64,000 nucleotides of DNA from an uncultured bacterium (GCA_964655175.1 CAZZLY010000001.1:5006-69005); one strand, 5' to 3'. Positions 1 to 47,043 are shown, numbered from the stretch's first letter. The notes: a model not told the origin generated them from the sequence alone. Made by a program: numbers and translations.

Positions 1-12
1 GACCCGGGCACG

Positions 13-9384: not shown

Positions 9385-12300
9385 ATGAGGTTCCGTCGTA
9401 CCGTCGTCGCCACGCTGGCGATGCTCGCGCTGTGCGGTGCGCCCCGTGTGGGCGCGGCCGCCACGCCGACGCCGCTCGCCGGGGTCCGCCTCGCGCCCGC
9501 CACGCCCGGTGCGGTGCGTTTCACCGTCGCCGTGCCCGAGCCGCGCTTCGTGCGCGTCGATCACGACCTCGACCACGACGATCTCATGATCGACGGCTTC
9601 ACCACCGTGGGCACGCCCGGGCAGCCCGCGCTGCCGACGCGTGTCGTGATGGTCGCGGTCCCGCCCGTGGGCGAGGTGCGCCTGACCGCGGTCGCGAGCG
9701 ACGTGCGCGTGCGTGAGGGCGTCACGCTGGCACCGCGTCCCGCCGAGGATCGCGAGGGGCACGTCGTGCGCGTCGCGCGCGACCTCGCGGCCTACGGTGC
9801 CGCCGGCAGCCCGGTGCCCGTCGCCGCGCGACTGCTCGACGTGTCGTGGCTGCGCAACCAGCGCGTCGCGCGCATCGAGTTGTCGCCCGCCGCCTACGAA
9901 CCCGCCGCGCGTCGTCTGGGCGTGGCCTCGCGTCTCGACGTCGAACTCGCCGTGGACGTGCTCGGACCGCTGGGCCCGCCCGCCGAAGCGAACGACGGCT
10001 TCGAGCCCGTCTACCGTCAGTCGCTCCTCAACTACGCGCAGGGCCTCGCGTGGCGACGTCCCGAGACCGCCGCGTTGCTCGCCGCCTCGCGCCGCGCCGG
10101 GGTGCGTCTCGAGGCCACGCAGGCCGATGCGATCACCGTGGGCGATACGACCAGCGTGTTCGCGGGCCGCACCTGGATCAAGATCGCGGTGCAGAAGTCC
10201 GGCTTCGTCGCGGTGAACTTCTCGCGGTTGCGCAATCTGTCGCTGTTCGATCCCACGATCCCCGCGCCGCTCGACAGCCTGCGGTTGTTCACGTGGCCCG
10301 GTGTGACCGTGCTGCCCGAGGACAGCTACTGCGACTCGTGCGCCTATCGCGAGGTCGCGATCGGCATCGTGCGCGACGTGAGCGCGCCGCCCTCCGGGCA
10401 GCCCAACGTGGACGGACCGGCCGATGGGCTGTTCGCCGACAACAACGACGCGTTCTACTTCTACGCGCAGGGACCGGACGGGTGGGAGAGCGATCAGGAC
10501 GCCGCGCGCCCGGACACGAACTACACGACCAACCCGTACGAGAAGAACAACTACTACTACCTGACCGTCTCGCGCAGCGACAATCCCGTGAGCGGTCTCG
10601 CGTACCCGGTGAGCGCGCGTCGCATCGGCGCCGATGCGGCCACGCGTCGCAGTGTCACGCCCGACGGTCGCGAGACGCCGGTCGCGACGGTGCCGGGGCG
10701 CGTGCACCTCGAGCAGGACCTCGAGTACTGGCCGGACGCCACCGCGGTGGGCAGCTCGCTCAAGTGGGAGAAGTTCTTCTGGCGCAGCCTCATCTCGGGG
10801 CAGACCTTCACGCACTCGCTCGATCTGCCGGATGCCGACACCACGCAGCCGGCGCGGCTCCGGTTGCGGCAGTGGGGGCTGTCGGACAACTACCGCACGC
10901 TCAACTTCAGCTGCTTCGTGCGCATCCCCGATCACGTGCTCGACGTCTCGCTCAACGGGCTCACGATCCCGAGGCTGAGTTGGTTCTCGAACACGGCCGA
11001 GGACGGTGGGGCGGTGACGATCGACACGACCGCCACGTTCCTGCGGCGCACCGGGAATCAGCTCACGGTCACCGTGCCGGTGCTGCCGCGCGACCCGGAC
11101 TGCCCCAATCGTCTCGATCGCAGCGCCGTCGCGTTCTACGAGGTGTACTACGCGCGCCGTCTGATGCCCGAGGGCGATGCGATCACGTTCGCCACCGCCC
11201 CGGGGACCGGTCGCTTCCGTTACGACGTCGGACCGTTCGCGCGCACGCCGTCGTCGTTCGTGTTCGACGTCACCGATCCGCAGCGACCCGTGCTGCTCAC
11301 CGATGCCGTGCGCACGAACGGGCCCGAGGGTTTCACGCTGTCGTTCGCGGACACGCAGACCGTGGCGCATCGCTACGCGGTCGTGCCCGACTCGATCCTC
11401 ACGCAGACGACCGCGGTGCTGGCGGCGAGCGCGTTCTCGGATGCGCCGTTCACGAGCCGTCGCAACCTGCGCAGCACGACGAATCGCGCCGACTACCTCG
11501 TCATCCACTACGACGGATTCCAGCAGGCCGCGGATTCGTTGGTCGCCTGGCGGCGTCAGCACCTGCCGCTGCTGGCCACGCCGGCGCCGCATGCCGCGGA
11601 GGCGATCCCGGTGTCGGCGATCTTCGACCAGTTCTCGGGCGGGCGCACCGACCCGGGCGCGATCCGCAGCTTCCTGCGCGCGGCCTACGGCTGGGCGACG
11701 CGGCCCCTGTACGTGACGTTCCTGGGCGACGCCTCGTACGACTACAAGGACATCACCGGGCGCGCCACGCCGGGGCTGCCGGGCTGTCTGCTGCCGACCT
11801 ACGAGAACGGCTTCGACAAGACGTTCGTCATCCGGCGTCAGTACGTGACCGACGACTGGATCGTGAACGTGAACGATTCGCGCGTCGTGTTGCCGGACTA
11901 CCTCTCGGGGCGCATCCCCGCCGACGACGCGGCCTCGGCCCTCGCGGTGGTGACGCAGAAGGTGCTCGGTTACGAGCGCCGCGCCCCGGTCGGGGAGTAC
12001 CGCAACAGCGTCCTGTTCATGGCCGACGACAACGTGCAGGGCGGACCGTGCGACGCCACCAATTGCGAGCGCGGCTGCGACGCACTGGCGTGGACCCACG
12101 TGTTCCAGACCGACAACCTGAACGTCGCGCACACGCCCGAGCACATCGACCGCGAGTACGTGTACCTGCACACCTATCCGACCGGTCCGGGTGTGACCAA
12201 GCCGGGGGCGCGTGCCGACCTGTTCGCCAAGCTCAATCAGGGGACGTCGGTCTTCAACTACGTCGGCCACGGCAGTCCGTTCAAGATGACCGACGAGGGC

Positions 12301-13809
12301 GTGTTCCTGGACAGCGACGCCGGCACGTTGTCGAACGGCCTCAAGATGTCGCTCATGGTCTCGGCCTCGTGCGACGTGGGCAAGTTCAACGACCCGAGCG
12401 TGCAGAGTCTGGGCGAGCGCATCTTCATGTCGCCGAACGCCGGTTGCATCGCGGTGCTCTCGGCGACCGAGCAGGCGCTGTCCTCGGACAACAGCTTCCT
12501 CAACGGTCTCATCTACGACGGCCTGTTCAATCGCGACACGCTCACCGTGGCGGGCAACCTGCTGCCCACGGTGGGGCAGTTCCACGTGCCCGTCTCGGCC
12601 GCGCTGCTCGCCGCCAAGCAGGTGCCGGCGGCGCAGTCGTCGAACAGCCAGAAGTACCAGCTCATGGGTGACCCCGCGCTGCTGCTCAATCTGCCGCGCT
12701 ATTGGGTCGATCTGCGGCTCACGGATCTGGCGGGTGCTCCGGTGACCACGCTCACGCGCGGCCAGACGCTGCGGTTCTCGGGCGAGGTGCTCGATCGTCC
12801 GGGCGGCACGCGCGTCGTCATGGACGGTGTCTCGAGCGTGCTCATCGAGGATTCGGCGCCGCAGGACCGCACCGACGGGACCTGCCAGACGCCGGTGGAT
12901 TACACGTTCAGCGCCGGCCCCATGTACCACGGCGACGTCACCGTTCGTGGCGGCACGTTCTCGGGGCGCTTCGTGGTGCCGCTCGATGCGACCACGGGCA
13001 CCGAGGCGCGCGTGCGTGCCTACGTGACCGGCCTGCCCACCGGGGTGTCCGCGGTGCAGGACGGCGTCGGTGCCGAACGCTCGGCCGTGGTGCCCGGCGC
13101 GCCGCCGGCCGACGATCTCGAGGGCCCGCGCATCACGCTGTCGTTCCTCGGGGGCTCGACCAACGTGCGACCCGGTTCGACGCTGCAGGTCGTGCTGTTC
13201 GATGAGAGCGGCATCATGACGACGGGCCACGCGTTGCAGAACTCGATCATCGTGACGCTCGACGGCAACAGCACCTCGCGCACCGACATCACGCCGAGCT
13301 TCCGGTACGCCGCCGATTCGTATCAGTCGGGGACCGCCACGTTCACGTTGCCGACGCTCAGTCCGGGGCCGCACACGCTCAAGGTCTCGGCGGCCGACAA
13401 TCTCGCCACCGGGCTCGGTGCGGCGCAGCACCGCAGCGTCGCGACGCTCGATTTCCAGGTCGTGGACACGCCGCCGCTGAACGTCGCGCGGACCTATCTG
13501 TTCCCGAATCCCGTTCGCTCGGCGGGGAAGGGGGCGGGTGGCGTGTTCGTCGTCGACGCCCCGGGCGACTCGATCAACACCCTCATCCGCATCTACACGG
13601 TCGCGGGTAAGTTGGTGCGGGAACTACGCATGATGGGTGGGATCGGGCAGGTCCAGATGCCGTGGGACGGGCGCGACGCCGAGGGCGACCCGCTCGCGCA
13701 GGGCACCTACCTTTACAAGGTTCATGTCAGCGTCCGAGATGCCGATGGTAGGAGCAACCCCCGCCAGCGCGCTGCGGCGGAGGGACGCTTCGTCGTTCTC
13801 AGCCCCTAG
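9385..13809 (+). CDS. Very large secreted peptidase C25 (gingipain-family) protein, PorU-like, with a Por-secretion-tail-like C-terminal domain.
   Basis: Signal peptide MRFRRTVVATLAMLALCGAPRVGAAA. C25 catalytic His/Cys context YVGHGSP ... MVSASCDVGKF. The C-terminal ~90 aa (YLFPNPVRS...IRIYTVAGKLVRELRMMG...WDGRDAEGDPLAQGTYLYKVHV) match the CTD shared with two other proteins in this window. It is followed directly by a PorV-like barrel gene. The true start is the ATG at 9385, and the track's 9046 start is a spurious upstream extension. Confidence 0.65.
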   Translation: MRFRRTVVATLAMLALCGAPRVGAAATPTPLAGVRLAPATPGAVRFTVAVPEPRFVRVDHDLDHDDLMIDGFTTVGTPGQPALPTRVVMVAVPPVGEVRLTAVASDVRVREGVTLAPRPAEDREGHVVRVARDLAAYGAAGSPVPVAARLLDVSWLRNQRVARIELSPAAYEPAARRLGVASRLDVELAVDVLGPLGPPAEANDGFEPVYRQSLLNYAQGLAWRRPETAALLAASRRAGVRLEATQADAITVGDTTSVFAGRTWIKIAVQKSGFVAVNFSRLRNLSLFDPTIPAPLDSLRLFTWPGVTVLPEDSYCDSCAYREVAIGIVRDVSAPPSGQPNVDGPADGLFADNNDAFYFYAQGPDGWESDQDAARPDTNYTTNPYEKNNYYYLTVSRSDNPVSGLAYPVSARRIGADAATRRSVTPDGRETPVATVPGRVHLEQDLEYWPDATAVGSSLKWEKFFWRSLISGQTFTHSLDLPDADTTQPARLRLRQWGLSDNYRTLNFSCFVRIPDHVLDVSLNGLTIPRLSWFSNTAEDGGAVTIDTTATFLRRTGNQLTVTVPVLPRDPDCPNRLDRSAVAFYEVYYARRLMPEGDAITFATAPGTGRFRYDVGPFARTPSSFVFDVTDPQRPVLLTDAVRTNGPEGFTLSFADTQTVAHRYAVVPDSILTQTTAVLAASAFSDAPFTSRRNLRSTTNRADYLVIHYDGFQQAADSLVAWRRQHLPLLATPAPHAAEAIPVSAIFDQFSGGRTDPGAIRSFLRAAYGWATRPLYVTFLGDASYDYKDITGRATPGLPGCLLPTYENGFDKTFVIRRQYVTDDWIVNVNDSRVVLPDYLSGRIPADDAASALAVVTQKVLGYERRAPVGEYRNSVLFMADDNVQGGPCDATNCERGCDALAWTHVFQTDNLNVAHTPEHIDREYVYLHTYPTGPGVTKPGARADLFAKLNQGTSVFNYVGHGSPFKMTDEGVFLDSDAGTLSNGLKMSLMVSASCDVGKFNDPSVQSLGERIFMSPNAGCIAVLSATEQALSSDNSFLNGLIYDGLFNRDTLTVAGNLLPTVGQFHVPVSAALLAAKQVPAAQSSNSQKYQLMGDPALLLNLPRYWVDLRLTDLAGAPVTTLTRGQTLRFSGEVLDRPGGTRVVMDGVSSVLIEDSAPQDRTDGTCQTPVDYTFSAGPMYHGDVTVRGGTFSGRFVVPLDATTGTEARVRAYVTGLPTGVSAVQDGVGAERSAVVPGAPPADDLEGPRITLSFLGGSTNVRPGSTLQVVLFDESGIMTTGHALQNSIIVTLDGNSTSRTDITPSFRYAADSYQSGTATFTLPTLSPGPHTLKVSAADNLATGLGAAQHRSVATLDFQVVDTPPLNVARTYLFPNPVRSAGKGAGGVFVVDAPGDSINTLIRIYTVAGKLVRELRMMGGIGQVQMPWDGRDAEGDPLAQGTYLYKVHVSVRDADGRSNPRQRAAAEGRFVVLSP

Positions 13810-13824
13810 TCCCGGGTCGGGGTG

Positions 13825-13849
13825 CCGGGTCCCATGATTCGGGAACCGG
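13825..13849 (+). terminator. Imperfect hairpin between the C25 peptidase gene and the PorV-like gene.
   Basis: ccgggtccc-atgattc-gggaaccgg pairs at 8 of 9 positions. A small gcgtttgcgg hairpin follows. It may be a partial terminator or an RNA processing site that allows differential expression of the two genes. Confidence 0.25.
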
Positions 13850-13928
13850 GCCCGCGTTTGCGGTGTAGCACCCCTTGTCCGGTACCATGCCCGCGAGTCC
13901 CGCGGTCCCCCACATAGGAGCCAAATCC

Positions 13929-14879: not shown

Positions 14880-14887
14880 ACGGACAC

Positions 14888-17800
14888 GTGAAACTGCGCC
14901 ATCCAGTCGTCGCACTCGTCGTCGCGTTCGCGCTCACGGCCGCACGGGCTCCCATGGCCCGTGCGGCCGAAGCGCGTTCGCTGACCGTCCGTCCCGTGGC
15001 GCCGGCCGAGCAGGTGCTCGACCAGCAGCGCCGCGGCATCGTGCCGCGCGCCGCCGCGATGACCCCCGCCGAGCGCGCCGTCCTCCAGCAGCGGCTCGAC
15101 CGCCAGCGCGCGGCGCGGGCGATCGAGGACACGATGCACGCCAGGGCGTCGCGCGTCGGCGCCGGGATCACGGCGAACCGTCGCCGGGGCTGGCGGCCGC
15201 CGCAGGCCGCCGCGGGCAAGCCGGGCACGAGCGCGTTCGCGCCCGCCGTCGGCACCGTGGACACGATCCGCGTGGCGTTGCTGCGCATCGACTTCCTCGA
15301 GGACCGACTCGGGCCCGCCTCCAGCGGCGACGGGCGGTTCAACCTCGACCCGGCCGACACGATCGCCAACCCGGTCGATCGCCCGCCGCACAATCGCGAC
15401 TTCTATCGCGCGCACGGTGAGGCGCTGTCGCGGTACTACGACGCGCAGACCTACGGTCAGGTCCACGTGCAGGTGGACGTGTGGCCGGCGGAGCAGGACT
15501 CGGCGTACCACCTGTCCGACATGGCCGACCTGGGCCCGTGGCGATTCGGCAGCGGCATCTTCCGCGCCGCCGTGGACATGATGAAGAAGTCGTTCATGGC
15601 CGCCGACTCGCAGTCGGTGGTGCACGGTGGCCGCATCCCGTGGGACGACTACGACCGCTTCCTCATCATCCATGCGGGCAGCGACCTGCAGAGCGATCTG
15701 CGCGGCGATTCCAAGCTCGACATCCCGTCGTTCACGATGTTCGTGGACGACACCGACCGCGTCGAGTTCCCCGACAGCGTCTTCCGTCCGATCGATCGCG
15801 TCGCGTTCCTGCCCGAGACGATCAATCAGGACGACGCCTACGGCGCGATCAACGGTGTGATCGCGCACGAGTGCGGTCACAACTTCTTCGGCTTCGGTGA
15901 CGTGTACGACGTCAGCACCGCGCTGCCCACCGTGGGCTACTGGTCGCTCATGGACAGCGGCAATCTCGTGGGGGCGCGATTGCTGTCGTCCACGGGCGAG
16001 ATCTTCGTGGTCGGTCTGCTGCCACCGAGCGTCGATCCGTTCCAGCGCAACTTCGCCACGATCACGCAGTCGAGCCTGCTCAACTTCCGGGAGCCCGGAG
16101 CGGCCGACACGACCGCCTTCCCGCTGTACGGCAGCCAGCGGCACAACGATTTCGTGAAGCTCGATCTGTCCACGGACGAGTACCTGCTGCTCGAGAACCG
16201 CTACCTGTCTCCGGCCGCCGCGGTGCGTCTGCTGCGCGACAGCACCACGGACGTCGTGCTCGGGCCACGCGAACCGGACCGCTACGAGTACGACGCGCTG
16301 CTGCCCGGTTCGGGCGTGCTGGTGTGGCACGTGGACGAGAGCGTGATCCCGTTCAACACGTCGTTGCGCGTGAATCCCGACTTCGGCTTCAACACCAACC
16401 CGCGCCGCTACGGTCTGCAGATGATCGAGGCCGACGGGCTCGACGATCTGGGGGACGTGGGTTCACCGTTCCTGTTGGGCAGCGCGCTCGATCCGTACCA
16501 GGCCTCGGTCGCCACGACGCTCTCGGACGTCACGGTGCCGAACCTGCGTCCCAATCAGGGCACGCGGCCGCATCTGCGCATCGACTTCCTCGACGACGCC
16601 TCGGACACGATGCACGTGCGCGTGACGCGGACGTGGCAGCCCGCCGGCTGGCCCGTGCGCGGCAACTTCCCGCCCGGTGGCCCGCGACTGCTCGCACTCG
16701 ACCTCGATGGCGACGGCAAGCGCGAGGTGCTGTGGGCGGGGGGCGACACGGTGGTGACCGACTTCAGCCTCGCCGGCCGCAAGGTCGCCCGCGACAGCGC
16801 GGGCGTGTTCGCGGTCCGCTTCGACGGTCGCGGGCTCGCCGCCGCCGACACGTTCGATTTCGCGCACCTCGATCGCCGTCCCCGGCCGGCACTCGCGGCC
16901 TGGGTCGCGAACCCCGTCACGGGACAGGGGCCCGGGGTCGTCGTCGCGACGACGATGCGCCACGGCGCGTCGGATGCGGCGGGTGGGCGCGTGTGGGCGA
17001 TCCAGGCCGATGGCGCCGTGCGCGCGGGTTTCCCGGTCACCTTGGCCTCTCCGGCCAGCACCGCGCCGATCGTCGTGCAGCGCCCGAGCGGCATCCGCAT
17101 CCTGGTGGGTTGCGAGGACGGTCGCGTGCGCGCCCTCGATGAGAACGGCGTGCTGCGCGCCACGAGTGCCCTCGCGCTCGACGGACCCGTCACGGGTTCG
17201 CTCGCGTGCGGCGAGGATCCGACGCTGCCGGTGCCGTTCGTGGCCACGCCGCAGGGACTCGTCGCGGCGGGCGACTCGACCGGTCAGGTCGTGCTCCTGA
17301 CGCTGCCCGACCTCACCCCGGTGAGCGGTTGGCCGCGCTCGGTGGGCGGGGCGGGCTTCACGCCGGACTTCCTGTTCATGCAGAGCGGGGGGGCGGGGGC
17401 GAGCGCCGACGTGGCGTGCGGCGGGTCGCCGACGCTTTACGTGCACCACGCCGATCGCGTGTGGGCCTTCTGTCCGCCGGGGGCGACGGCCGTCGAGGGC
17501 TGGGGCCTGCCGCAGCGCGACACGCTCGTGGCCGGATTGGCCGCCGGTGACCCCGACGGCGACGGCTTCCCCGAGATCGTGGCGCAGACGCAGCATTCGC
17601 AGGTGCTGTTCCTCAATCGCACCGGACGACCCTCGCCGGGTTGGCCGCGCGCGGCGAGTGCCGATGAGTTCCGCACCTCGAGCGCACCCATCGTGGTGGA
17701 CGTGAATGGCGATGGCCGCCCCGAGATCGTGGCACTCACCGCGAGTGGCGTGCTCAACGCGATCGATGGCAACGGACGCGTGGCCGAAGGCTGGCCGCTC

Positions 17801-18304
17801 GCGACCGGTGCGGGCTGCGCGGGTTCGCTCGTCGCCACCGACCTCGAGGGTGACGGCTCGCTCGAGTTCGTCGCGCCCGATCGCTTCGGTCGGCTGTACG
17901 CGTACACCACGAGCCTGCTCGCCTCGGGCCCGACCGCGCCGTGGCTGCAGTGGGGCGGGGGCGTGGGGCGCACGTTCGACCTGCCCGCGCTCGCCACGAG
18001 CACGCCGCGCGCGCCCAGCGCCGGGCCGCTCGTGCCGGGGTCGCTCAAGGCGTACCCCAACCCCGCGCGCATGAAGCCGATCCAGTTCGCCTACCAGTTG
18101 AGCGAGGACGCCACCGTCGAGGTGCGCATCCTCGATGCGTCGGGGCACGAGGTCACGCGTTGGACGCGTGCGGGCCGTCGCGCCGACAACCTCGACCGTT
18201 GGGATCCGACCGGTGTCCCGGCCGGCCTGTACGTGGCGCATCTGCGCTTCGCGGGCCCCGGCGGGACGCGCACCGAGACCGTGCCGTTGGGCATCCTGCG
18301 ATGA
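14888..18304 (+). CDS. Secreted M6-like (immune inhibitor A type) zinc metalloprotease fused to FG-GAP repeats and a Por-secretion-tail-like C-terminal domain.
   Basis: Signal peptide MKLRHPVVALVVAFALTAARAPMARA. HExxH-type motif VIAHECGHNFFGFGDVYD, compared with the M6 HEYGHDLGLPDEYD. At least four DxDGDG..E(I/V) FG-GAP repeats with GWP motifs. C-terminus KAYPNPARMKPIQFAYQL...VEVRILDASGHEVTRW...WDPTGVPAGLYVAHLRF. GTG start lies 9 nt after the upstream stop. Confidence 0.6.
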   Translation: MKLRHPVVALVVAFALTAARAPMARAAEARSLTVRPVAPAEQVLDQQRRGIVPRAAAMTPAERAVLQQRLDRQRAARAIEDTMHARASRVGAGITANRRRGWRPPQAAAGKPGTSAFAPAVGTVDTIRVALLRIDFLEDRLGPASSGDGRFNLDPADTIANPVDRPPHNRDFYRAHGEALSRYYDAQTYGQVHVQVDVWPAEQDSAYHLSDMADLGPWRFGSGIFRAAVDMMKKSFMAADSQSVVHGGRIPWDDYDRFLIIHAGSDLQSDLRGDSKLDIPSFTMFVDDTDRVEFPDSVFRPIDRVAFLPETINQDDAYGAINGVIAHECGHNFFGFGDVYDVSTALPTVGYWSLMDSGNLVGARLLSSTGEIFVVGLLPPSVDPFQRNFATITQSSLLNFREPGAADTTAFPLYGSQRHNDFVKLDLSTDEYLLLENRYLSPAAAVRLLRDSTTDVVLGPREPDRYEYDALLPGSGVLVWHVDESVIPFNTSLRVNPDFGFNTNPRRYGLQMIEADGLDDLGDVGSPFLLGSALDPYQASVATTLSDVTVPNLRPNQGTRPHLRIDFLDDASDTMHVRVTRTWQPAGWPVRGNFPPGGPRLLALDLDGDGKREVLWAGGDTVVTDFSLAGRKVARDSAGVFAVRFDGRGLAAADTFDFAHLDRRPRPALAAWVANPVTGQGPGVVVATTMRHGASDAAGGRVWAIQADGAVRAGFPVTLASPASTAPIVVQRPSGIRILVGCEDGRVRALDENGVLRATSALALDGPVTGSLACGEDPTLPVPFVATPQGLVAAGDSTGQVVLLTLPDLTPVSGWPRSVGGAGFTPDFLFMQSGGAGASADVACGGSPTLYVHHADRVWAFCPPGATAVEGWGLPQRDTLVAGLAAGDPDGDGFPEIVAQTQHSQVLFLNRTGRPSPGWPRAASADEFRTSSAPIVVDVNGDGRPEIVALTASGVLNAIDGNGRVAEGWPLATGAGCAGSLVATDLEGDGSLEFVAPDRFGRLYAYTTSLLASGPTAPWLQWGGGVGRTFDLPALATSTPRAPSAGPLVPGSLKAYPNPARMKPIQFAYQLSEDATVEVRILDASGHEVTRWTRAGRRADNLDRWDPTGVPAGLYVAHLRFAGPGGTRTETVPLGILR

Positions 18305-19134
18305 TCGCGTTCGTCCTGACCGCGCTCGTGTCCACCGCTCCCGTCCCCGTGGAGGCGTTCTGCGTGGGCTCGACGCCCGCGCTGGCGCCGGTCACGGTGG
18401 CGGTCCCGGGGCGCGACGCCGTCGGTGCCGCGCTCGTGTCCGAACTCGCGCCGCGCATCCGTCACGGCGCCTCCCAGGTGCCCGAGGGCTGGCTGGCGCA
18501 GCGGTCGATCGAGCGCAGTTGGGGACTGTCCGACGATTCGCTCTACACCGAGGTCGTGATCCCGGACTGGAAGTCCGAGGGGACCGCGTTCGCGCTGTCG
18601 GCCGTGCTGCCCGGTGCGGGCGAGCGCTACGTCGGCGAGAACAGCGCGTGGCTGTTCCTGACCGCCGAGGTGATCGGTTGGGCCGGACGCACGCTGAGTG
18701 GTCGCCGCGCCGATGATCGCTACGCGCAGAACGTCGGCTTCGTCGGCGATCCGGCCGACACGGCGGCGGCGTGGTCGTTCGAGCGCTATCGCGACGCGGG
18801 CGGTGCGCGCGTCGCCGAACTGCAGACGCTGTGGGCGGTGGATCGGGCCTCGTTCTACCGCACGCTCGCCGACGATCCGTCGGTCGCGGGTGGTTTCACC
18901 GCGGGCAGCGCGAACGTGTTCCGCGACGCCTACGACGAGTACCAGGGCCTGCGCCGACGCTCGCGGCTGTTCGAGATCGCGCTGTGGGTCAACCATGCGG
19001 TGTCGGCCTTCGACGCGCTGCGCGCCGCGCATCTGCACAACCTGACGCTCCGTCCCGACACGCAGCTGCAGATGGGCGCCCGCCTCGTGCGCGGCCGACC
19101 CGCCCTGCGTGCCGCGCTCACGAGGAGGTTCTGA
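18301..19134 (+). CDS. Hypothetical protein, DUF5683-like. Paralog 1.
   Basis: Hydrophobic N-terminus MIAFVLTALVSTAPVPVEA. Motif SAVLPGAGERYVGEN resembles the S..PG.GQ.Y motif of DUF5683. ATG overlaps the upstream stop (ATGA). Confidence 0.4.
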   Translation: MIAFVLTALVSTAPVPVEAFCVGSTPALAPVTVAVPGRDAVGAALVSELAPRIRHGASQVPEGWLAQRSIERSWGLSDDSLYTEVVIPDWKSEGTAFALSAVLPGAGERYVGENSAWLFLTAEVIGWAGRTLSGRRADDRYAQNVGFVGDPADTAAAWSFERYRDAGGARVAELQTLWAVDRASFYRTLADDPSVAGGFTAGSANVFRDAYDEYQGLRRRSRLFEIALWVNHAVSAFDALRAAHLHNLTLRPDTQLQMGARLVRGRPALRAALTRRF

Positions 19135-19136
19135 CC

Positions 19137-20018
19137 GTGGTCCTGCCGTTCCTCGCCGCACTCGTCCTGAGCGCACCGCTCGCGCCGCCGGGCGCAGGCT
19201 CGGGCTTCACGGTCGATCCGGTCGACTCGCCCGTGGCGCTCGCGACGCCCGCGAACGTCATGGTCTCGCCGCTCTCGATCGCGTCGGGTTCGATCACCGG
19301 GTTCGGTGACGAGCGCGACACGACCCGCACGCGCAAGCTCCGCGCCCGCAAGGGGCGTCGTCCCGCCCCCGTCGTGTCCAACGAGGGTCTGGGTCCCGAG
19401 CGCGCGCGCATCCTGCTGCGCTCGCTCACCGTGCCCGGCTGGGGCCAGGCCACGCTGGGCCACAAGGGCAGTGCGCGCGTGTTCCTGATCGCCGAGGCCG
19501 GCATCTGGGGCGCGTTCACCGCCTTCAAGATCCAGCAGGCGCACCGCACCGAGGCCTATCTGCGCACCGCGCGACTGGGCGCCGGGATCGACATGTCGGG
19601 CATGGACGACGAGTACCGCCGGATCGTGGGCGCGTTCGCGAGCAGCGACGAGTACAACCTGCTCGTCGTCACGCGCGACGCGGCCAACCTGTATCTGAGC
19701 GACCCGGCCGCACCCGACCTCGAGGGTTATCGCCGCTACATCGCCGAGCACTCGATCCCCGCCGATCGCACCTGGGCGTGGCAGGACGAGGCCTCGTTCC
19801 TGCGCTACGGCGACCAGCGCAAGTTCGCCCAGAAGGCCGGGCTGCGCGCGAACGCGGCGTTGGGGCTGGCGATCGCCAACCGACTCGTGAGCGCGCTGCA
19901 CGCCGCGAGGTCCGCGGGCCGTCCGGCCGCAGCGCCCGTGCAGGGCTGGCGCTTCGAACTCGAGCCGGGCGACCTGTCGTCGGGCTCGATGCGCGCGGCG
20001 TTCACCACGAACTTCTAG
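19137..20018 (+). CDS. Hypothetical protein, DUF5683-like. Paralog 2.
   Basis: GTG start 8 nt after RBS GAGGAGG. N-terminal signal-like VVLPFLAALVLSAPLAPPGAG. Motif SLTVPGWGQATLGHK matches the DUF5683 PG(L/W)GQ signature. Its architecture is similar to the upstream gene. Confidence 0.45.
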   Translation: MVLPFLAALVLSAPLAPPGAGSGFTVDPVDSPVALATPANVMVSPLSIASGSITGFGDERDTTRTRKLRARKGRRPAPVVSNEGLGPERARILLRSLTVPGWGQATLGHKGSARVFLIAEAGIWGAFTAFKIQQAHRTEAYLRTARLGAGIDMSGMDDEYRRIVGAFASSDEYNLLVVTRDAANLYLSDPAAPDLEGYRRYIAEHSIPADRTWAWQDEASFLRYGDQRKFAQKAGLRANAALGLAIANRLVSALHAARSAGRPAAAPVQGWRFELEPGDLSSGSMRAAFTTNF

Positions 20019-20031
20019 GACGGCGAGCGGC

Positions 20032-21021
20032 ATGCGCGTCCGACTCCCGTCCCTCGCGGTGGTGCTCGGCGGGGCGTGTCTCGCGCTCGTGGGCACCGTC
20101 CACGCGCAGACCGATTCCACGCGCGTGACCGCGTGGCACCTGGTGCCGCGCGACACGCTCGTCTCGCCCCGCCTGACCGAGCCCTCGGGGCTGGCGATCG
20201 ACGCCTTCGGTCGGCTGTGGGTGAGCGACGCCGCATGGCATCGCGTCGTGCGTTTGAGCGACGACGGTGGCGCTCTGGATGAGACCGGTGCGCTCGGCAG
20301 CGCGCCGGGGCAGTTCCGACGTCCGGGCGGGCTCGCGGTCGCGGGTGCGCTCGGGGTGGCGGTGCTCGACCTCGAGAACCGTCGCGTGAGTCTGTACGAC
20401 CATCATCTGAGATTGCTCGGTGCGGCCTGCGATCTGGCCGCGCCCGCCCTCGAGGAGCGTCTCGGGCGCGTGACGCCGGTGGCGGTGGCCGCCGACCGCG
20501 GCGGGGCGCTGCACGTGGCCGACGGGGACCGCGATCGCATCCTGGTGTTCGACTTCGCGGGGACGTTCGTGCGCGAGTGGGGCGGCTTCGGATCTCGGGC
20601 GGGCGGTTTCTCGGGCCTCATGGGGATCGCCGGGGACGGTCGCGGCGGGCTCGTCACGATCGAGCGACCGCGCGCGCGATCTCGCAGGACCGACGCCGAC
20701 AGCACCGTGGGGCGCGCGCGGGTGCAGTGGCTCGAGACCGGGGGGCGCGTCGTGCGCACCGCGTGGACGCCCGTCTGGGCCGCAGGTCCCGCCGAGCAGT
20801 CGTTCGCGGTCGCGGTGGCTTCGTCGGGCCGGGTCGCGATCGTGGGCGAGCGTTCGGGGCAGTTGTGCGTGCTCGGTGCGGACGGCGAGGCGCTCGCGGG
20901 CCTTTCGGGCCTGAGCGCACCGCGTGCGGTGGTGTTCGGTGCCGACGGCACGCTGCTCGTGGCGGAAGCCGGGGCGGCGCGCATCGTGCGCTTCACGCTG
21001 CTCGCCCCCGGCGGGGAGTAG
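20032..21021 (+). CDS. Secreted NHL-repeat (six-bladed beta-propeller) protein.
   Basis: Signal peptide MRVRLPSLAVVLGGACLALVGTVHAQ. Repeated ...GLA(V/I)D..G.L.V.D... blades (PSGLAIDAFGRLWVSD; PGGLAVAGALGVAVLD; GALHVADGD; DGTLLVAEAG). Confidence 0.45.
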   Translation: MRVRLPSLAVVLGGACLALVGTVHAQTDSTRVTAWHLVPRDTLVSPRLTEPSGLAIDAFGRLWVSDAAWHRVVRLSDDGGALDETGALGSAPGQFRRPGGLAVAGALGVAVLDLENRRVSLYDHHLRLLGAACDLAAPALEERLGRVTPVAVAADRGGALHVADGDRDRILVFDFAGTFVREWGGFGSRAGGFSGLMGIAGDGRGGLVTIERPRARSRRTDADSTVGRARVQWLETGGRVVRTAWTPVWAAGPAEQSFAVAVASSGRVAIVGERSGQLCVLGADGEALAGLSGLSAPRAVVFGADGTLLVAEAGAARIVRFTLLAPGGE

Positions 21022-21024
21022 ACG

Positions 21025-24000
21025 ATGCGGGCGTGGCGTGGGGGGCTCGTCGCCCTGGGCCTGACGCTCGCCGCGACGCTCCGCGCCCACGCGGCGGGCC
21101 CGCAGCACGACCCCGCCTGCTTCACGGTCTCGTTCGTGCCCGCGTCCGGCGTCGCGGTCACGCGCATGCCGCGCGGCTTCCTGCGCGCGGGCCGCGACTC
21201 GGTCTGGACGCGCAGCGGCGTGTGGCGCCGCGACCTCGACTACGTGCTCGATCGCCTGCACGGCGACCTGCGACTGCTGCGCACCCCGGTCCCGGGGGAG
21301 ACCGTGTGGGTGCGCGCCTGCGGACTCGTGGCGCCGCCGCCGCTCGAATACCAGCCGCTCGTCTACCAGCCGGTGCGCACGGTCCCGGTGGGGGACACGA
21401 CGCACGCGACCCCTTCGCCCGCACCCTTCGCACGCCCCGCCACCGCGCGCGATCCCTCGCAGGCGCCGTTCGGTGGTGCGCTCGAGGTCACGGGCAACAA
21501 GACGCTCGCGGTGGACTTCGGTTCGTCGCAGGACGCGGCGCTGCGTCAGTCGCTCGACCTCTCGCTGAGCGGTCGCATCGCGCCGGGCGTCGAACTGACC
21601 GGTGTGCTCACCGATCGCGACACGCCGTTGTCGGCCTCGGGCGCGACGCAGGATCTGCAGTCGATCGATCGCGTGCTGCTCGAGTTGCGCGCGCGTGATG
21701 CGCGCGCCTCGTTCGGGGACGTGCCGCTGTCGGTGACCGGGGGCGAGTTCGCGCGGCTCGAGCGTCGCGTGCAGGGCGTGGCGGGTGAGTGGCGTCCCGG
21801 TGCGTTCGAACTGCGCGCGGCCGCCGCGGGATCGCAGGGCGAGTACATGCGGCTCGCGTTCGCGGGTGTGGACGGCCGACAGGGTCCGTACCTGCTCACG
21901 GACCGCGACGGTGCCCCGGGCGTCACCGTGGTCGCGGGCAGCGAGCAGGTCACGGTGGACGGCGTGCGCATGACGCGCGGCGAGGGCGCCGACTACGCCA
22001 TCGACTACGAACGGGCGCGGCTCACGTTCTCGAACCGCCGACCGATCTCGTCGGCGTCGCGCATCGTCGTGGAGTACCAGTACGCGCTCACGCGCTTCCG
22101 CCGCGGCGTGACCACCGCGTCCACCGCCTGGCAGCGCGGGGCCTGGGCGCTGCACGCCGAGGCGATCAGCGAACGCGACGACGGTGGCCGACCCATCACG
22201 GGGACCCTCGATGCGGCCGACCGGGCGCTGCTGGCTTCGGCCGGAGACTCGCTGGCACTCGCGCCCGGGGTGACCGCGGGCGGCGGCGACTACGATTCGG
22301 TGCGCGTCGCGGGCACGCTCGCGTACGCGTTCGCGGGTCTCGATTCGGGTGCGTTCGCGGTCCGGTTCGCGCGCGTCGGTGCGGGGCTCGGCGACTACGC
22401 CGACTCGGCGGTGGTCGGAGGGCGCACGGTGTATCGCTTCGTGGGTGCGGGCGCGGGGGCCTGGCGTGTGGGCCGCGCGCTGCCCGCACCCGAGGCGCAC
22501 CGGCTCGTGGCGTTCGGCGCACGCACGCGGCTCGGCGGGTTCGCCTTCGAGTCCGAGGGCGCGGTCTCGTCGCTCGATCGCAACACGTTCTCCGCGCGCG
22601 ACGGCGGCGATGACGCCGGTGGCGCGCTGCGGCTCAGGGTGGAGGGCGAGACGCGCGCCGGGGCGTTGCCGGGGCGCGTGGGCGTGAGCGCCGCGTGGCG
22701 CAGCGTCGATCGGCGGTTCGCCCCGTTCTCGCGCCTCGAGCGGGCGTTCATCGAGGAGGACTGGGGCCTGCGACCGGGGGCCGACCTCGAGCATCCGCAG
22801 CGCGGTGAACTCGCGGGTTGGTGGCGCTCGGGGGAGGGACGCGAACTGCGCGCGGGGCTGGCGCGCCTGCGCACGCCCGACGGTTACGACGGCGTGCGGC
22901 GTGAAGCGAACGCCCGCTACGGGCGAGGGGCGTGGCGCGTGGGGGGCACGTGGCTCGATGCGGCCGGGCGCACGACCGGGGCGCGCTTCGGTGACGGCGG
23001 GCGTGAACGCGCGACCGGCGACCTGCAGTGGACGAGCGGCTGGCTGGTGCCACGATTGCGGGTCGAACGCGATCGGCGCACGACGCCCGGCGACACCTCG
23101 AGCGTGCTCGATCGCGTCGAGGCCTTCGATGCCGACGTCGCCAGCGGTGCGCGCGCGACCTGGCGCATGGCGCTCGGCGGCGGCACGCGACGCGATCGTC
23201 GTGACGCGGGACGCACGTCGCTCGACTCGCGCACCCAGGCACTGCGCGCCGAACTCGAGACCCCCGCTGCGCGACCCTGGGGGGCGGTGCTGGCGTTGCA
23301 GCGACGCGACACGCGCGATCGCACGAGCGGCGTGCTCGTGCGTCAGGATCTCGCCAGTTCGCGCGTGCGCGCCGAGTCGCGCGCCACGGGGCTCGCGGGC
23401 ACGGTGCAGGTCGAGCGCACCGGCGAGGCCGAGAATCGTCGCGTGCGGCAGCTCACGTTCGTCGGAGCCGGGCGCGGCGGCTACGACGCCACGGGCAACT
23501 TCGTGGGCACGGGGGACCACGACCTCGTGCTCGTGGTGAGCCCCGACCTGGAGCGATTCGCGCGCACGGCGGTGAGCGCGCGCGCGTCGTGGGCGTTCGG
23601 TCGTTCCGACGCGTGGCGCGGCACGCGGTTCGAGCTCACGTTCGAGGACGAGGCCCGCCGTCGCGGCGTGGGGCGTTGGGCCGACGTGTTCCTGAGCGGT
23701 GGCACCGCGCTCGGGGACGCGGGGCTCGCGCGTGCGAGCGTGCTGCACCGGTTCGAGAGCGAGATCGCGCCGGGCTCGCGCGCCGCCGCGTTCCGTGTGC
23801 GCGTCGAGCGGCGCGTGAGCGTGGACCGCTCGTTCACGAACTACGCGCAGTCCACCGATCAGCGCACCGGTGCGCTGCGCTGGCGGTCGCGTCCCGGTAC
23901 CACCACGAGCGCCGAAGCCGAGGCGCGGGTGACGTGGCAGCGCGCGGGGCAGGCCGTCACGGGCGGGGCGAGCTATGCGCGCACGCTCGTGGACCAGGGA

Positions 24001-24369
24001 GGCACCGCGCAGTTCGTGTGGCAGCCGGGCGCCGGACTGCGCACGGCCGGCGTGCTCGAGGCGACGTGGTCGCGCGCCCCGGGCACGGGCGACGTCGCTC
24101 GCACCGTGCGCGTGGGGCCCGACGTCTCGGCGAGTGTGGGCCGTGCCGGTCGTGCCGACCTGATCGTGCGGCGCGCGTTCGTCAACGGTTCGCCGCTGGG
24201 GCTGCTGCCGACCGCCGACCCGATCGGCGCGGCGCGCTGGGACGCCACCGCGCGGTTCGACTGGCGCGTGCACACGACCACGACGATCGGCTTCGACACG
24301 CAGCTGCGCGAGCGGCCGGGGCACCGGACCGTCGTGACGGGGCGTGCCGAGGTGAGGGCGTTCTTCTGA
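21025..24369 (+). CDS. Large (1114 aa) secreted protein, probably outer-membrane associated, with a beta-barrel-like C-terminus.
   Basis: Signal peptide MRAWRGGLVALGLTLAATLRAHAAG. The C-terminal third is made of long alternating hydrophobic/polar stretches, and the protein ends ...GRAEVRAFF with a terminal aromatic (Phe). Its stop overlaps the start of the downstream Omp85 gene (TGATG). No confident family assignment is possible from sequence alone. Confidence 0.4.
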   Translation: MRAWRGGLVALGLTLAATLRAHAAGPQHDPACFTVSFVPASGVAVTRMPRGFLRAGRDSVWTRSGVWRRDLDYVLDRLHGDLRLLRTPVPGETVWVRACGLVAPPPLEYQPLVYQPVRTVPVGDTTHATPSPAPFARPATARDPSQAPFGGALEVTGNKTLAVDFGSSQDAALRQSLDLSLSGRIAPGVELTGVLTDRDTPLSASGATQDLQSIDRVLLELRARDARASFGDVPLSVTGGEFARLERRVQGVAGEWRPGAFELRAAAAGSQGEYMRLAFAGVDGRQGPYLLTDRDGAPGVTVVAGSEQVTVDGVRMTRGEGADYAIDYERARLTFSNRRPISSASRIVVEYQYALTRFRRGVTTASTAWQRGAWALHAEAISERDDGGRPITGTLDAADRALLASAGDSLALAPGVTAGGGDYDSVRVAGTLAYAFAGLDSGAFAVRFARVGAGLGDYADSAVVGGRTVYRFVGAGAGAWRVGRALPAPEAHRLVAFGARTRLGGFAFESEGAVSSLDRNTFSARDGGDDAGGALRLRVEGETRAGALPGRVGVSAAWRSVDRRFAPFSRLERAFIEEDWGLRPGADLEHPQRGELAGWWRSGEGRELRAGLARLRTPDGYDGVRREANARYGRGAWRVGGTWLDAAGRTTGARFGDGGRERATGDLQWTSGWLVPRLRVERDRRTTPGDTSSVLDRVEAFDADVASGARATWRMALGGGTRRDRRDAGRTSLDSRTQALRAELETPAARPWGAVLALQRRDTRDRTSGVLVRQDLASSRVRAESRATGLAGTVQVERTGEAENRRVRQLTFVGAGRGGYDATGNFVGTGDHDLVLVVSPDLERFARTAVSARASWAFGRSDAWRGTRFELTFEDEARRRGVGRWADVFLSGGTALGDAGLARASVLHRFESEIAPGSRAAAFRVRVERRVSVDRSFTNYAQSTDQRTGALRWRSRPGTTTSAEAEARVTWQRAGQAVTGGASYARTLVDQGGTAQFVWQPGAGLRTAGVLEATWSRAPGTGDVARTVRVGPDVSASVGRAGRADLIVRRAFVNGSPLGLLPTADPIGAARWDATARFDWRVHTTTTIGFDTQLRERPGHRTVVTGRAEVRAFF

Positions 24370-26090
24370 TGCGCCCGCTGCGGGCCGTCCTCGTCCGGTG
24401 CGCGACCGTCCTCGCGCTCGTGGGGCTCGCGCACCCGGCGTGGTCCGCGCCCGCGCGGCTGCGGCTCTCGGGATGGCCGCTCGCCTCGCGCGAGGGCGAC
24501 GCGGTGTTCGCGGCCGCCCTGCGCGCGCCGGGGGATAGCGTCGCGCTCGCGGTGGCGCTCGGGCGCGGCGTGGCGCGGTTGCAGGCGGGCGGATGGCACG
24601 ACGCGGCGCTCACCGCCGAATGGCGGGAGACGCGCGACGTGCTCGAGGTGCGCGTCGAGCCGGGGCCGCAGCGTCGTTGGGGCGCACTCGTCTTCGACGT
24701 GCCGACCGCGGACTCGGCGTTCGTGGCGCGTGAGCGCGTGTGGCCGCAGGGCGAACCCGCCGACCCGGCCGCACTGGCACGCACGGTCGACGATCTGCTC
24801 GCGCGCGCGCATCGCGCGGGGCACGCGTGGGCGCAGTTGGCGGTCACCGATTGGCGCGTCGATCCGACGCGGGTCGCGGTGCGGCTGTCGGGCGCGCTCG
24901 GACCCCGGGTGACGGTGGAGTCCGTGCGACTGGACGGGCTCGCGGTCACGCGGCGCGACGTGGCCGAACGTGCATTGGGACGACTCGCCGGTCTGCCCTA
25001 CAATCCCGACGCCGCACGCGCGGGAGCGGCGCGGCTCGCGACGCTCGGGGTGTTCGCGCGCGTCGGTGAGCCCGTGCTCGAGGCCGGTCCCCGTTGGGAA
25101 CGCGCCACCCTCGTGATCCCGGTGACCGAACCGCGCTACAACCGCTTCGAGGGCGCGCTCGGCGTGCAGGGCGGAGGCGCGGTGGTGGGCCTCGCCTCCC
25201 TCGATCTGGGCAACCTGCTCGGCACGGCGCGCGTCGCGTCGCTCGCGTGGCAGTCGCGCGGTGCGGGGCGCACCGATCTGAGCATGCGGTACGTCGAGCC
25301 GTTCGTGGTGGGGCTGCCGTACCGCCTCGAACTCGGACTCGTGCAGCAGATGCAGGACACGACGTACACGCGCACGCGCTGGGGCGTGCGCGTCGGCCAC
25401 GGACTCGGCGCGGGCGACCGCATCGAACTCGGTCACGAGGAGGAGCGGGTGGTGCAGACGCGGGGCGCGGTGCAGCAGGCGGCGCTGCAGCACACGTCGT
25501 TCGCCTGGGAGCGCGACGGTCGGGACGACCGTCTCTCGCCGCGTCGCGGCGTGCGTGCGCGCCTGGCGGGCGCCGGCGTGTTCAAGCGCGAGACGCTGCG
25601 CGCACCGGGACCGCTCGAGTCGGCCACGCGGCGCGCGCGCGCCGGCACGGCCGAGTGCACGATCGAGGCGCATCGCCCGCTCGGCGCACGGACCGGTGTG
25701 GCCCTGGAGCTCGAGGCGCAGGGGCGCTTCGCGGGCGACGCCGTGCTCGAGCCGTGGGAGCGCACCCCGGTGGGCGGCGCGCGTACGCTGCGCGGCCACG
25801 ACGAGGAGGAGTTCCGGGTCGACCGCGTCGTGCGATCGCGACTGGAACTGCGTGCCTTCCCGGGTTCGGTCGGCGAGCACGTCGCGCTGTTCTGGGACCA
25901 CGCCGAACTGTTCACGCGCGAGGTGGTCGCACCCACGGGCACGGCGCTGCGTCGCCGCGGTGCCGACGGGGTGGGGCTGGGCCTGCATCTGGTGACCGGC
26001 ACCGGCCGTGTGGACGTGGATTACGGTCTGGCGCCGGGTCGCGGCGCGCTCGACGGGCGCATCCACCTGCGCCTCGTGAGCACCTTCTAA
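24369..26090 (+). CDS. Omp85 / bacterial surface antigen (D15) family outer-membrane protein, BamA/TamA/TpsB-like, with POTRA region.
   Basis: Signal peptide MRPLRAVLVRCATVLALVGLAHPAWSA. POTRA-like segment ERALGRLAGLPYNPDAARAGAARLATLGVF. C-terminal barrel ending ...DGRIHLRLVSTF with terminal Phe. The 573-aa size matches TamA/TpsB. Confidence 0.6.
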   Translation: MRPLRAVLVRCATVLALVGLAHPAWSAPARLRLSGWPLASREGDAVFAAALRAPGDSVALAVALGRGVARLQAGGWHDAALTAEWRETRDVLEVRVEPGPQRRWGALVFDVPTADSAFVARERVWPQGEPADPAALARTVDDLLARAHRAGHAWAQLAVTDWRVDPTRVAVRLSGALGPRVTVESVRLDGLAVTRRDVAERALGRLAGLPYNPDAARAGAARLATLGVFARVGEPVLEAGPRWERATLVIPVTEPRYNRFEGALGVQGGGAVVGLASLDLGNLLGTARVASLAWQSRGAGRTDLSMRYVEPFVVGLPYRLELGLVQQMQDTTYTRTRWGVRVGHGLGAGDRIELGHEEERVVQTRGAVQQAALQHTSFAWERDGRDDRLSPRRGVRARLAGAGVFKRETLRAPGPLESATRRARAGTAECTIEAHRPLGARTGVALELEAQGRFAGDAVLEPWERTPVGGARTLRGHDEEEFRVDRVVRSRLELRAFPGSVGEHVALFWDHAELFTREVVAPTGTALRRRGADGVGLGLHLVTGTGRVDVDYGLAPGRGALDGRIHLRLVSTF

Positions 26091-32697: not shown

Positions 32698-32850
32698 CAC
32701 AACGGGTTACGGCGGTACGCTCAAGCGTCGGGTGAGGTCTTCCCCGGCCCCTCGCGCGGTTCGCGGGGATGACCATCGGGCCGTCGGCGGGGTAGCATGC
32801 CGCGCTCGTCGTCCCGCCTTCGTTCGTCCCCGCCCGAGGAGAGCCTCGCG

Positions 32851-37094: not shown

Positions 37095-37155
37095 CGCGCC
37101 GCCGGGCCCGCGCGACGCGGGGCCCAGCGTTGACGCCCGGCGCACGCGCTCCCTA

Positions 37156-39531: not shown

Positions 39532-39713
39532 TCGCTGCAGTCGGCCCGGAGGCCGTCCGATACCCACAGGGAACGAGGCCCGTTCGCTCGTCGAGCCCGC
39601 ACGGATGCGCGGCGACGATCGGGCGCGGCGTGCGCGTGCGTGCGCCGTGACGCGACAAGAAGTCCCGCTCCGAGAACGGGTTCCGCTCTCTCGCAACGCC
39701 CCCGGGGATCATC

Positions 39714-41414
<1,701 letters not shown>

Positions 41415-41439
41415 GCGGCCGCTCGAACGGAGAACGACG

Positions 41440-42522: not shown

Positions 42523-42538
42523 ACGGAGGACACGCACC

Positions 42539-43753: not shown

Positions 43754-43754
43754 C

Positions 43755-45425: not shown

Positions 45426-45459
45426 TCACGAAACAACCCGTTCACAGTGAGGTGACGCC

Positions 45460-46881: not shown

Positions 46882-47027
46882 GACGTGCGGGTCGCACGGT
46901 CCGTGGTCGGGGTGGCTGCAAATCGCCCGGCACCACGGATCGGCGAACCCGGGATGTGACACCCCGCCCTCGGCACAAGGTCTTGCCGGACAGCGGGAAG
47001 CAGGGAAGTCAGGGCCGCGCGCCCCGA

Positions 47028-47043
47028 TGGCACGCGGATTGCG
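47028..47043 (+). promoter_or_regulatory. Sigma-54 (-24/-12) promoter upstream of pilA.
   Basis: TGGCACGCGGATTGCG equals TGGCAC-N5-TTGC, an exact match to the GG-N10-GC consensus. It lies ~73 nt upstream of the pilA ATG and directly downstream of the PilR-like sigma-54 activator gene. Confidence 0.5.

Follow-up and report, generated by a model that had tools for sequence, protein, structure and literature searches.

Introduction

Nearly all detailed work on type IX secretion comes from Bacteroidota, where the translocon is a 2400-residue, 36-strand barrel with a trans-envelope motor. The hand-over of proteins carrying a C-terminal sorting domain (CTD) to PorV and their processing by PorU are established in Porphyromonas gingivalis and Flavobacterium johnsoniae (PMC10994853, PMC4804311). 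A systematic survey found the complete type IX secretion system (T9SS) in Bacteroidetes only (PMC4793230), reviews assign the system to the FCB (Fibrobacteres-Chlorobi-Bacteroidetes) superphylum (PMC11205867, PMC12398890), and, of the T9SS proteins, Ignavibacterium and Melioribacter have been reported to carry SprA, PorV, and Plug alone (PMC11705866), which means that FCB relatives with reduced sets exist. Here we analyze a 64,000-nucleotide stretch of DNA from an uncultured bacterium (GCA_964655175.1, CAZZLY010000001.1:5006-69005; hereafter the window, meaning the whole stretch), in which a PorU-type C25 sortase, a PorV-family barrel, and an M6-like metalloprotease are encoded in one train with two small envelope proteins (d1 and d2), an NHL beta-propeller, a giant predicted outer-membrane beta-barrel, and an Omp85-family protein.

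With a probability of roughly three in four, we read this locus as the part of a type IX-style pathway that sorts proteins at the outer membrane, a figure that covers the PorU, PorV, and CTD sorting function and not the role of the giant barrel. What is new here is the conserved eight-gene cassette containing a giant unannotated barrel and its coupled Omp85 protein. An earlier model-generated interpretation of the same sequence (the original prediction) is partly supported by our results: its PorU-PorV core is sound, while its guess at the phylum did not hold and the strength it gave to the CTD and DUF5683 assignments was overstated.

A PorU-type sortase followed by a PorV-family barrel

The product of the first cassette gene, porU (Table 1), scores 457.1 bits over residues 259-1452 against the PorU equivalog model NF033707, for which the cut-off is 420, and contains a Peptidase_C25 domain (E 1.9e-62), a Propeptide_C25 domain, and an FlgD_ig domain (32.2 bits versus 27). 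Of the solved structures, only P. gingivalis PorU (PDB entry 6ZA2, E 3.7e-46) matches it, and the alignment of the two extends over 700 residues, from the catalytic domain through the CTD. The catalytic His962 lies in the motif NYVGHGSP and Cys996 in SASCDVG, which align with NYAGHGGP and TATCDF of the P. gingivalis protein, and both residues are kept in all orthologues examined (27 of 27). The protein ends in an Ig-like CTD of its own (about aa 1371-1474, nucleotides 13495-13806). The C25 peptidase with its His/Cys context that had been claimed for this gene is thus confirmed, and judged by its sequence the product is a PorU-type sortase with intact catalytic residues, which would remove CTDs and attach cargo to the cell surface.

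The gene that follows encodes a barrel protein that scores 193.7 bits versus 90 with the PorV/PorQ family model NF033709 and 60.3 bits versus 27 with the Pfam model PF19572, as anticipated by the original prediction of a porU-porV pair. The only PDB match of this protein is F. johnsoniae PorV (6H3I_F, E 1.8e-17), and by these comparisons it is nearer PorV than PorQ. As the PorU and PorV/PorQ-family scores exceed the NCBI naming cut-offs, this part of the locus belongs to a known kind. It resembles the Bacteroidota PorU-PorV pair in the adjacency of the two genes, the C25 fold with its His/Cys dyad, the CTD carried by PorU itself, the PorV-family barrel, and the presence of putative cargo with C-terminal Ig-like sorting domains. 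It differs from that pair in its host, in a PorU N-terminal region that is roughly 300 aa longer, in a shorter PorV-like protein that falls under the PorV equivalog cut-off, in divergent CTDs that fall under the TIGR04183 cut-off, and in being part of an eight-gene cassette, the other members of which are unknown as partners of the pair in Bacteroidota.

The C25 family is also that of the gingipains, and the C25 protein could instead be a secreted gingipain-like degradative protease and the locus a protease island, a view in keeping with the M6 neighbor and with the S8 and M23 peptidases found nearby in related loci. We regard this as very improbable, since the protein passes the PorU equivalog model over nearly 1200 residues, its best and only PDB match is to PorU rather than to a gingipain, and porV follows porU in every locus compared, be it from Candidatus Eisenbacteria or from the more distant loci L031 and L034 described below.

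The M6-like protease and the C-terminal domains

The M6-like protein, which also has a propeller region of FG-GAP repeats, scores 26.6 bits versus 22 with PF05547 and 56 bits with TIGR03296, under the cut-off of 110.8 for the latter. The sequence HECGH is found at aa 327, and the HExxH motif is kept in all orthologues, which bears out the earlier call of an M6-like metalloprotease. Among named models, NCBIfam holds a PorU2/PorV2/M6-like set (NF052324, NF052325, and NF052323), which we took as one gene cassette from the model names alone and in which an M6-like FG-GAP CTD protein is likewise tied to PorU/PorV-type models. The window proteins score far under the cut-offs of this set (85 versus 450, 34 versus 325, and 149 versus 600 bits, respectively), and they differ from it in that PorU here fits the canonical model and the M6 HExxH is intact. 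NF052323 describes a T9SS-dependent, inactivated M6-like protein; with the low score and the motif unbroken in every orthologue, we rejected the inactivated type for the window protein. A literature search on PorU2/PorV2, and on the domain DUF5683 discussed below, found nothing useful.

Three proteins in the window end in a domain of similar form. The CTD of the M6-like protein spans about aa 1055-1138 (nucleotides 18050-18301), and the C-terminal 90 aa of the FG-GAP/fibronectin-III (fn3) protein at the start of the window can be aligned both with the PorU and M6-like CTDs and with orthologues in 15 loci. When 51 CTDs of these three protein families were aligned together with the P. gingivalis PorU CTD, they revealed motifs common to all three families, namely PNPA, I.D.sGr.V, W(D/N)G.D, PaGlY, and a terminal hydrophobic-Arg. 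The domains have the form of type A CTDs, in which an Ig-like domain of about 80 aa with conserved motifs stands at the very C terminus of a Sec-exported protein. Weak matches to PF18962 Por_Secre_tail were found in the M6-like orthologues of L031 and L034. The claim that three proteins carry the same Por-type CTD therefore stood as to the relatedness of the domains and their shared motifs and failed as to the curated TIGR04183 threshold, which is missed. From their alignment, we read the three as T9SS sorting domains of type A that have diverged.

On the strength of its CTD, the FG-GAP/fn3 protein is a candidate T9SS cargo. Two roles are conceivable for the M6/FG-GAP protein, that of a constant cargo and that of a structural partner of the sortase; its fixed place beside PorV and the NCBI PorU2/PorV2/M6-like models hint at the latter. 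In L031, a 1217-aa S8 peptidase having CarboxypepD_reg domains and an FlgD_ig-type C-terminal domain is encoded just downstream of the cassette (17222-20875 of that locus) and is likely a further cargo of the same sorting signal.

Host and conservation of the cassette

Related loci are referred to by L numbers where they must be told apart. A conservation scan for PorU relatives, using one genome per species, retrieved 22 loci. Nearly all of these are from metagenome-assembled genomes (MAGs) of Candidatus Eisenbacteria, with a best identity of 78%, and several public sequencing runs contain short contigs that encode an identical PorV-like protein. The organism is a member of Candidatus Eisenbacteria, in the FCB superphylum. 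The original prediction had rightly placed the genome outside the classical Bacteroidetes and had suggested Gemmatimonadota, a label borne by a few more distant copies of the cassette. Because Eisenbacteria belong to the FCB superphylum, where reviews already place the T9SS (PMC11205867, PMC12398890), the taxonomic surprise is smaller than had been stated, and T9SS parts in Eisenbacteria are plausible.

The order FG-GAP/fn3-CTD protein, M23 protein, dnaE, accA, PorU, PorV, M6-like protein, d1, d2, NHL, and barrel persists among loci down to 44-49% PorU identity, and in Eisenbacteria loci the barrel is followed by Omp85, dinG, and the histidine utilization (hut) genes. The eight-gene stretch from PorU to Omp85 is found in this order in 22 Eisenbacteria loci. 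The loci L031 and L032 (66% guanine plus cytosine [GC], labelled Gemmatimonadota) contain PorU, PorV, an FG-GAP/CTD protein, one small protein, NHL, barrel, and Omp85 in this order, with ligA and the CTD-bearing S8 peptidase downstream in place of dinG and hut. The locus L034 (GC 65%) also retains the cassette, with dinG. The retention of the set from PorU to Omp85 in distant lineages, one of them with a changed downstream flank, indicates that it is a conserved unit.

Several observations weigh against interpreting the locus as a type IX-style sorting end. The PorV-like protein misses the equivalog cut-offs of both PorV (NF033710; 130.3 versus 250 bits) and PorQ (102.2 versus 220 bits) and, at 316 aa, is about 80 aa short of F. 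johnsoniae PorV (about 400 aa). The M6-like protein and PorU score 18.1 and 14.8 bits, respectively, with TIGR04183, below its cut-off of 23, and PF18962 Por_Secre_tail has no match among the window proteins at E<=0.01. No gene for SprA, GldK/L/M/N, SprE, SprT, or PorP/Q/Z was found within the 64-kb window. The synteny among Eisenbacteria spans housekeeping genes on both sides of the cassette, so gene order alone is no proof that the five downstream genes are functionally linked. Finally, a barrel-Omp85 pair is found without PorU or PorV in L037 (92-5377, beside dnaE) and L039 (6711-12033, beside rpsB-tsf-pyrH-frr), and the barrel gene stands alone in the Ignavibacteria-type genomes L033, L035, L036, and L040.

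Alternatively, the organism would have an ordinary, complete T9SS, with SprA, GldK/L/M/N, SprE, and SprT encoded elsewhere in the genome and with this locus comprising a porU-porV pair and one cargo, beside which the barrel, Omp85, NHL, and small proteins would be unrelated neighbors. In Bacteroidota, it is established that porU and porV are adjacent and that the core genes are encoded at separate sites; Abby et al. treat four T9SS components as loners (PMC4793230). An FCB-wide T9SS, as described in the reviews cited above, and a long-range Eisenbacteria synteny that takes in housekeeping genes would both fit such an arrangement. Set against it are the persistence of the PorU-to-Omp85 set in L031 and L032 despite their different downstream flank, the restriction of the full T9SS to Bacteroidetes in the systematic survey, the reduced T9SS sets of FCB relatives, and a literature search that found no report linking Eisenbacteria to the T9SS. 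We give this explanation serious weight, at somewhat less than an even chance; were the core genes to lie elsewhere in the genome, the locus would extend the ordinary T9SS to one more candidate phylum.

A precedent for a partial system in the superphylum is that of Ignavibacterium and Melioribacter; like the present host, they fall within the FCB lineages but outside classical Bacteroidetes and have T9SS parts of the outer membrane, with no motor or ring genes reported. That report is a BLAST-based presence/absence table (PMC11705866), and it includes neither the 1100-1200-aa barrel family nor a PorU-PorV-barrel-Omp85 cassette. Ignavibacteria-type MAGs contain many members of the giant-barrel family.

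The giant barrel family

The original prediction had described the 1114-aa product as an outer-membrane protein coupled through TGATG to an Omp85 gene; the TGATG is present, and a barrel is indeed predicted. The AlphaFold2 model, generated from a 63-sequence alignment (pLDDT 81, pTM 0.61), has a small N-terminal beta domain (aa 32-100), a disordered linker, and about 40 long beta strands, with two inserted domains (aa 299-351 and 397-486) and a C-terminal end of ...RAFF. The protein has no Pfam match. Its homologues are annotated as hypothetical throughout and have no Pfam domain. When 1.84 billion representative proteins were searched with a profile, 3025 clusters (at 50% identity) fell into the family at E<=1e-3, of which 2003 also did so at E<=1e-30. 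Among the best 150 listed, most are 1050-1230 aa long, fragments aside. Starting from a low-GC member, a search added 2420 proteins, and for many of these the source MAG bears the label Ignavibacteriae or Bacteroidota. The family, for which there is no Pfam or NCBIfam model, thus has members in Eisenbacteria, in MAGs labelled Gemmatimonadota, and in Ignavibacteria-type genomes.

The named protein to which the barrel is best compared is SprA/Sov, the 36-strand T9SS translocon (TIGR04189, PF14349; PDB entries 6H3I and 8GL8). Both are giant single-chain outer-membrane barrels, the present one by prediction, and SprA is the top Foldseek match, albeit a weak one, of two independent models of the barrel (an earlier first model and the AlphaFold2 model). 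The SprA model TIGR04189 matches 32 of 42 barrel-family members at E<=0.01, with a best E value of 2e-9, and is the only named family matched consistently; its scores are 15 bits for the window barrel and at most about 32 in the family, against a cut-off of 200, and PF14349 does not match the 1114-aa protein. The SprA sequences used for profile comparison were those in the PMC7323717 supplement together with others from a SprA-seeded homologue search, which returned only Porphyromonadaceae and Tannerellaceae proteins. The hhalign comparison gave a probability of 80% (E 1.3e-5) over residues 296-378 of the barrel and 670-751 of Sov only, corresponding to a small beta domain that the two have in common and the barrel hairpin after it. 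A second copy of this SprA-like motif is found at barrel residues 41-98, and hmmsearch and BLASTP comparisons of the barrel and SprA likewise retrieved a motif of only about 50-90 residues. Nothing scored in a global hhalign alignment of the two, and a profile search of the PDB with the barrel found nothing. In contrast to SprA/Sov, the barrel is under half as long (1114 aa versus about 2400), is without the large cap and N-terminal extension, and has its gene coupled to that of an Omp85 protein.

From these alignments, the barrel does resemble SprA, but only locally, which falls short of SprA-family membership. Homology to SprA over the whole protein is unsupported, with the likeness ending at about 80 residues and the global alignment empty. 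The small domain shared with SprA (barrel aa 41-98 and 299-351) also gave weak matches to phage distal tail and tail tube models (TIGR02217 and NF052337) in 8-10 of 42 members.

The local extent of this likeness and the phage tail matches of the shared domain are in keeping with a different view of the barrel, in which the barrel and Omp85, with NHL, form an independent FCB outer-membrane biogenesis or transport module that is unrelated to type IX secretion and came to follow porU-porV by an accident of lineage. The occurrence of the barrel-Omp85 pair in L037 and L039 apart from PorU and PorV, and of the barrel as a lone gene in four Ignavibacteria-type genomes, would fit such a module as well. 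On the other side, SprA is the one named family that members of the barrel family match consistently and heads the Foldseek results for both models, and the lone copies in L035 and L036 adjoin Por_Secre_tail proteins. SprA is itself usually a lone gene in Bacteroidota, so the lone Ignavibacteria barrels are no evidence against a translocon. We place the independent module only slightly short of even odds.

The barrel-Omp85 adjacency, which also occurs in L029, L031, and L034, is found in other contexts in L037 and L039, so the pairing with Omp85 is older and wider than that with PorU/PorV, and a link of the pair to type IX secretion can be suggested only indirectly. The housekeeping neighborhoods of L037 and L039, which are lower-GC relatives, recall the classical position of bamA, which is downstream of frr.

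A translocon-like role for the barrel is possible, with the odds clearly against it. In its broadest form, the proposal is that this family of 1100-1200-aa, roughly 40-strand barrels is a compact and unrecognized type IX translocon, used by FCB lineages without classical SprA and possibly without the GldKLMN motor, and encoded in Eisenbacteria with a dedicated Omp85 insertase, an NHL partner, PorV, PorU, and cargo as one self-contained secretion-and-attachment operon, and this we consider unlikely. Conserved in an FCB phylum other than Bacteroidota, an operon that joins the sortase and shuttle to a half-size barrel and an Omp85 protein offers a natural minimal version of the system in which to ask which outer-membrane parts are essential and how huge barrels are assembled. 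Should the barrel be unrelated to secretion, it would still stand for a family of extreme outer-membrane proteins that is very large, lacks annotation, and merits a name.

Accompanying proteins and proposed pathway

The small envelope proteins d1 and d2 are true paralogues (hhalign 98%, E 7e-14), as had been claimed; they occur together in every Eisenbacteria locus, and L031 has a single copy. The DUF5683 likeness claimed for both fared less well, with d1 matching PF18935 at E 0.014 (15.9 bits versus a gathering cut-off of 26.7) and d2 giving no match. Among orthologues, 16 of 33 match DUF5683 at E<=0.1 (best 4e-5), and a d1/d2 profile found no relative among solved structures. By these scores, d1 and d2 are at most remote DUF5683 relatives. 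The NHL protein matches NHL propellers in the PDB at E 5e-25, and an NHL gene directly precedes the barrel in L031, L034, and L038 as well. The Omp85 protein scores 37.9 bits versus 24 with PF01103 and matches BamA in the PDB at E 8e-8; its score of 36.6 bits with TIGR03303, against a cut-off of 297, does not make it a BamA orthologue. The NHL and Omp85 assignments of the original prediction, as well as that of the DinG helicase downstream, agree with the family hidden Markov models (HMMs).

Among described Omp85 arrangements, the TamA-TamB and BamA modules are alike in that a gene for a polypeptide transport-associated (POTRA) domain-bearing Omp85 protein lies beside, and is translationally coupled with, that of a very large envelope protein. 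Unlike in TamA-TamB, the partner here is a predicted beta-barrel rather than a TamB/AsmA-like periplasmic groove, the partner gene comes first, and there are no TamB/DUF490 matches. With a barrel predicted and with neither DUF490 nor AsmA matches, a TamB-like identity of the 1114-aa protein was rejected.

The sorting parts are present and intact, and by analogy with P. gingivalis and F. johnsoniae they would act as follows. Proteins bearing a CTD would cross the inner membrane by Sec and would then be handed, via an outer-membrane translocon, to the PorV-like shuttle; PorU would cut off the CTD, and the cargo would be released or attached to the surface. More speculatively, the 1114-aa barrel might act as the translocon or as a channel of similar kind, with the Omp85 protein coupled to it perhaps aiding its insertion. 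Omp85 as an assembly factor for the barrel is a plausible guess, and for d1/d2, NHL, the barrel, and Omp85 alike it is their place in the conserved cassette that suggests a role.

Organization of the window

Genes were called from frame-specific third-position GC together with inspection of start codons. The window has a GC content of about 70%, and its + strand carries nearly every gene (Table 1). The original prediction of a co-directional gene train with tiny gaps agrees with these calls in coordinates, direction, and spacing, and not in its count of ten genes, of which nine had been listed. porU and porV are separated by 119 nt, the M6-like gene and d1 overlap in ATGA, d1 and d2 are 2 nt apart, NHL and the barrel gene 3 nt, and the barrel and Omp85 genes share TGATG. 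The tight gaps run on into dinG and the hut operon, with an overlap of 4 nt between dinG and hutH, and are thus not peculiar to the cassette; the hut operon is syntenic in other Eisenbacteria. No intrinsic terminator was predicted between 8900 and 28400, against 4.1 expected from shuffled sequences, hinting that classical Rho-independent terminators are avoided or unused in this genome. All eight cassette products (8 of 8) have N-terminal signal-peptide-like sequences, and the products of the flanking dnaE, accA, dinG, and hut genes are cytoplasmic.

Table 1. Features of the window, in coordinates of the whole 64-kb stretch.
Feature	Coordinates	Strand	Basis and remarks
FG-GAP/fibronectin-III protein, 3' part only	1-1734	+	Pfam FG-GAP_3, fn3, FlgD_ig; ends in T9SS-like CTD
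M23 protein, 771 aa	2212-4527	+	Peptidase domain only near N terminus, remainder unassigned
Trm112p-like zinc-ribbon open reading frame (CPxC...CPxC), 55 aa	9188-9355	+	29 nt upstream of porU
PorU-type C25 sortase, 1474 aa	9385-13809	+	NF033707, Peptidase_C25, signal peptide
PorV/PorQ-family outer-membrane barrel, 316 aa	13929-14879	+	NF033709, PF19572; signal peptide, C-terminal Phe
M6-like zinc metalloprotease, 1138 aa	14888-18304	+	PF05547, FG-GAP_3, CTD; GTG start yields signal peptide
Small envelope protein d1, 277 aa	18301-19134	+	Remote DUF5683 likeness; conserved S..PG.GQ motif
Small envelope protein d2, 293 aa	19137-20018	+	d1 paralogue
Secreted six-bladed NHL beta-propeller, 329 aa	20032-21021	+	Pfam NHL
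Giant outer-membrane beta-barrel (predicted), 1114 aa	21025-24369	+	Unannotated family, structure prediction
Omp85-family protein, 573 aa	24369-26090	+	PF01103; POTRA plus 16-strand barrel type
DinG/YoaA helicase, 707 aa	26092-28215	+	Family HMM assignment
Histidine utilization operon (hutH, urocanase, imidazolonepropionase, formiminotransferase-cyclodeaminase)	28212-34383	+	Directly after dinG
677-aa protein	36967-39000	+	Without Pfam or NCBIfam match; C-terminal ...WPFFN
Type IV pilus cluster	39651-55584	+	pilB, pilT, pilC, histidine kinase, sigma-54 response regulator, ABC ATPase, pilM, GspM-like gene, pilQ

Between the FG-GAP/fn3 protein and the cassette stand the M23 gene, dnaE, and accA, and the 771-aa M23 protein is encoded upstream of dnaE throughout the Eisenbacteria loci. 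The Trm112p-like small gene that precedes porU does so likewise in the metagenome contig L001. Further downstream, the 677-aa protein, whose gene is flanked by those of a TPR protein and a ComEA-like HHH protein, resembles another unannotated outer-membrane barrel. The pilus genes described as Myxococcus-like in the original prediction correspond to the type IV pilus cluster, which includes tandem pilin genes (46960-47562 and 47563-48300) and in which several best matches are to Myxococcus-type models, every one of them below its cut-off.

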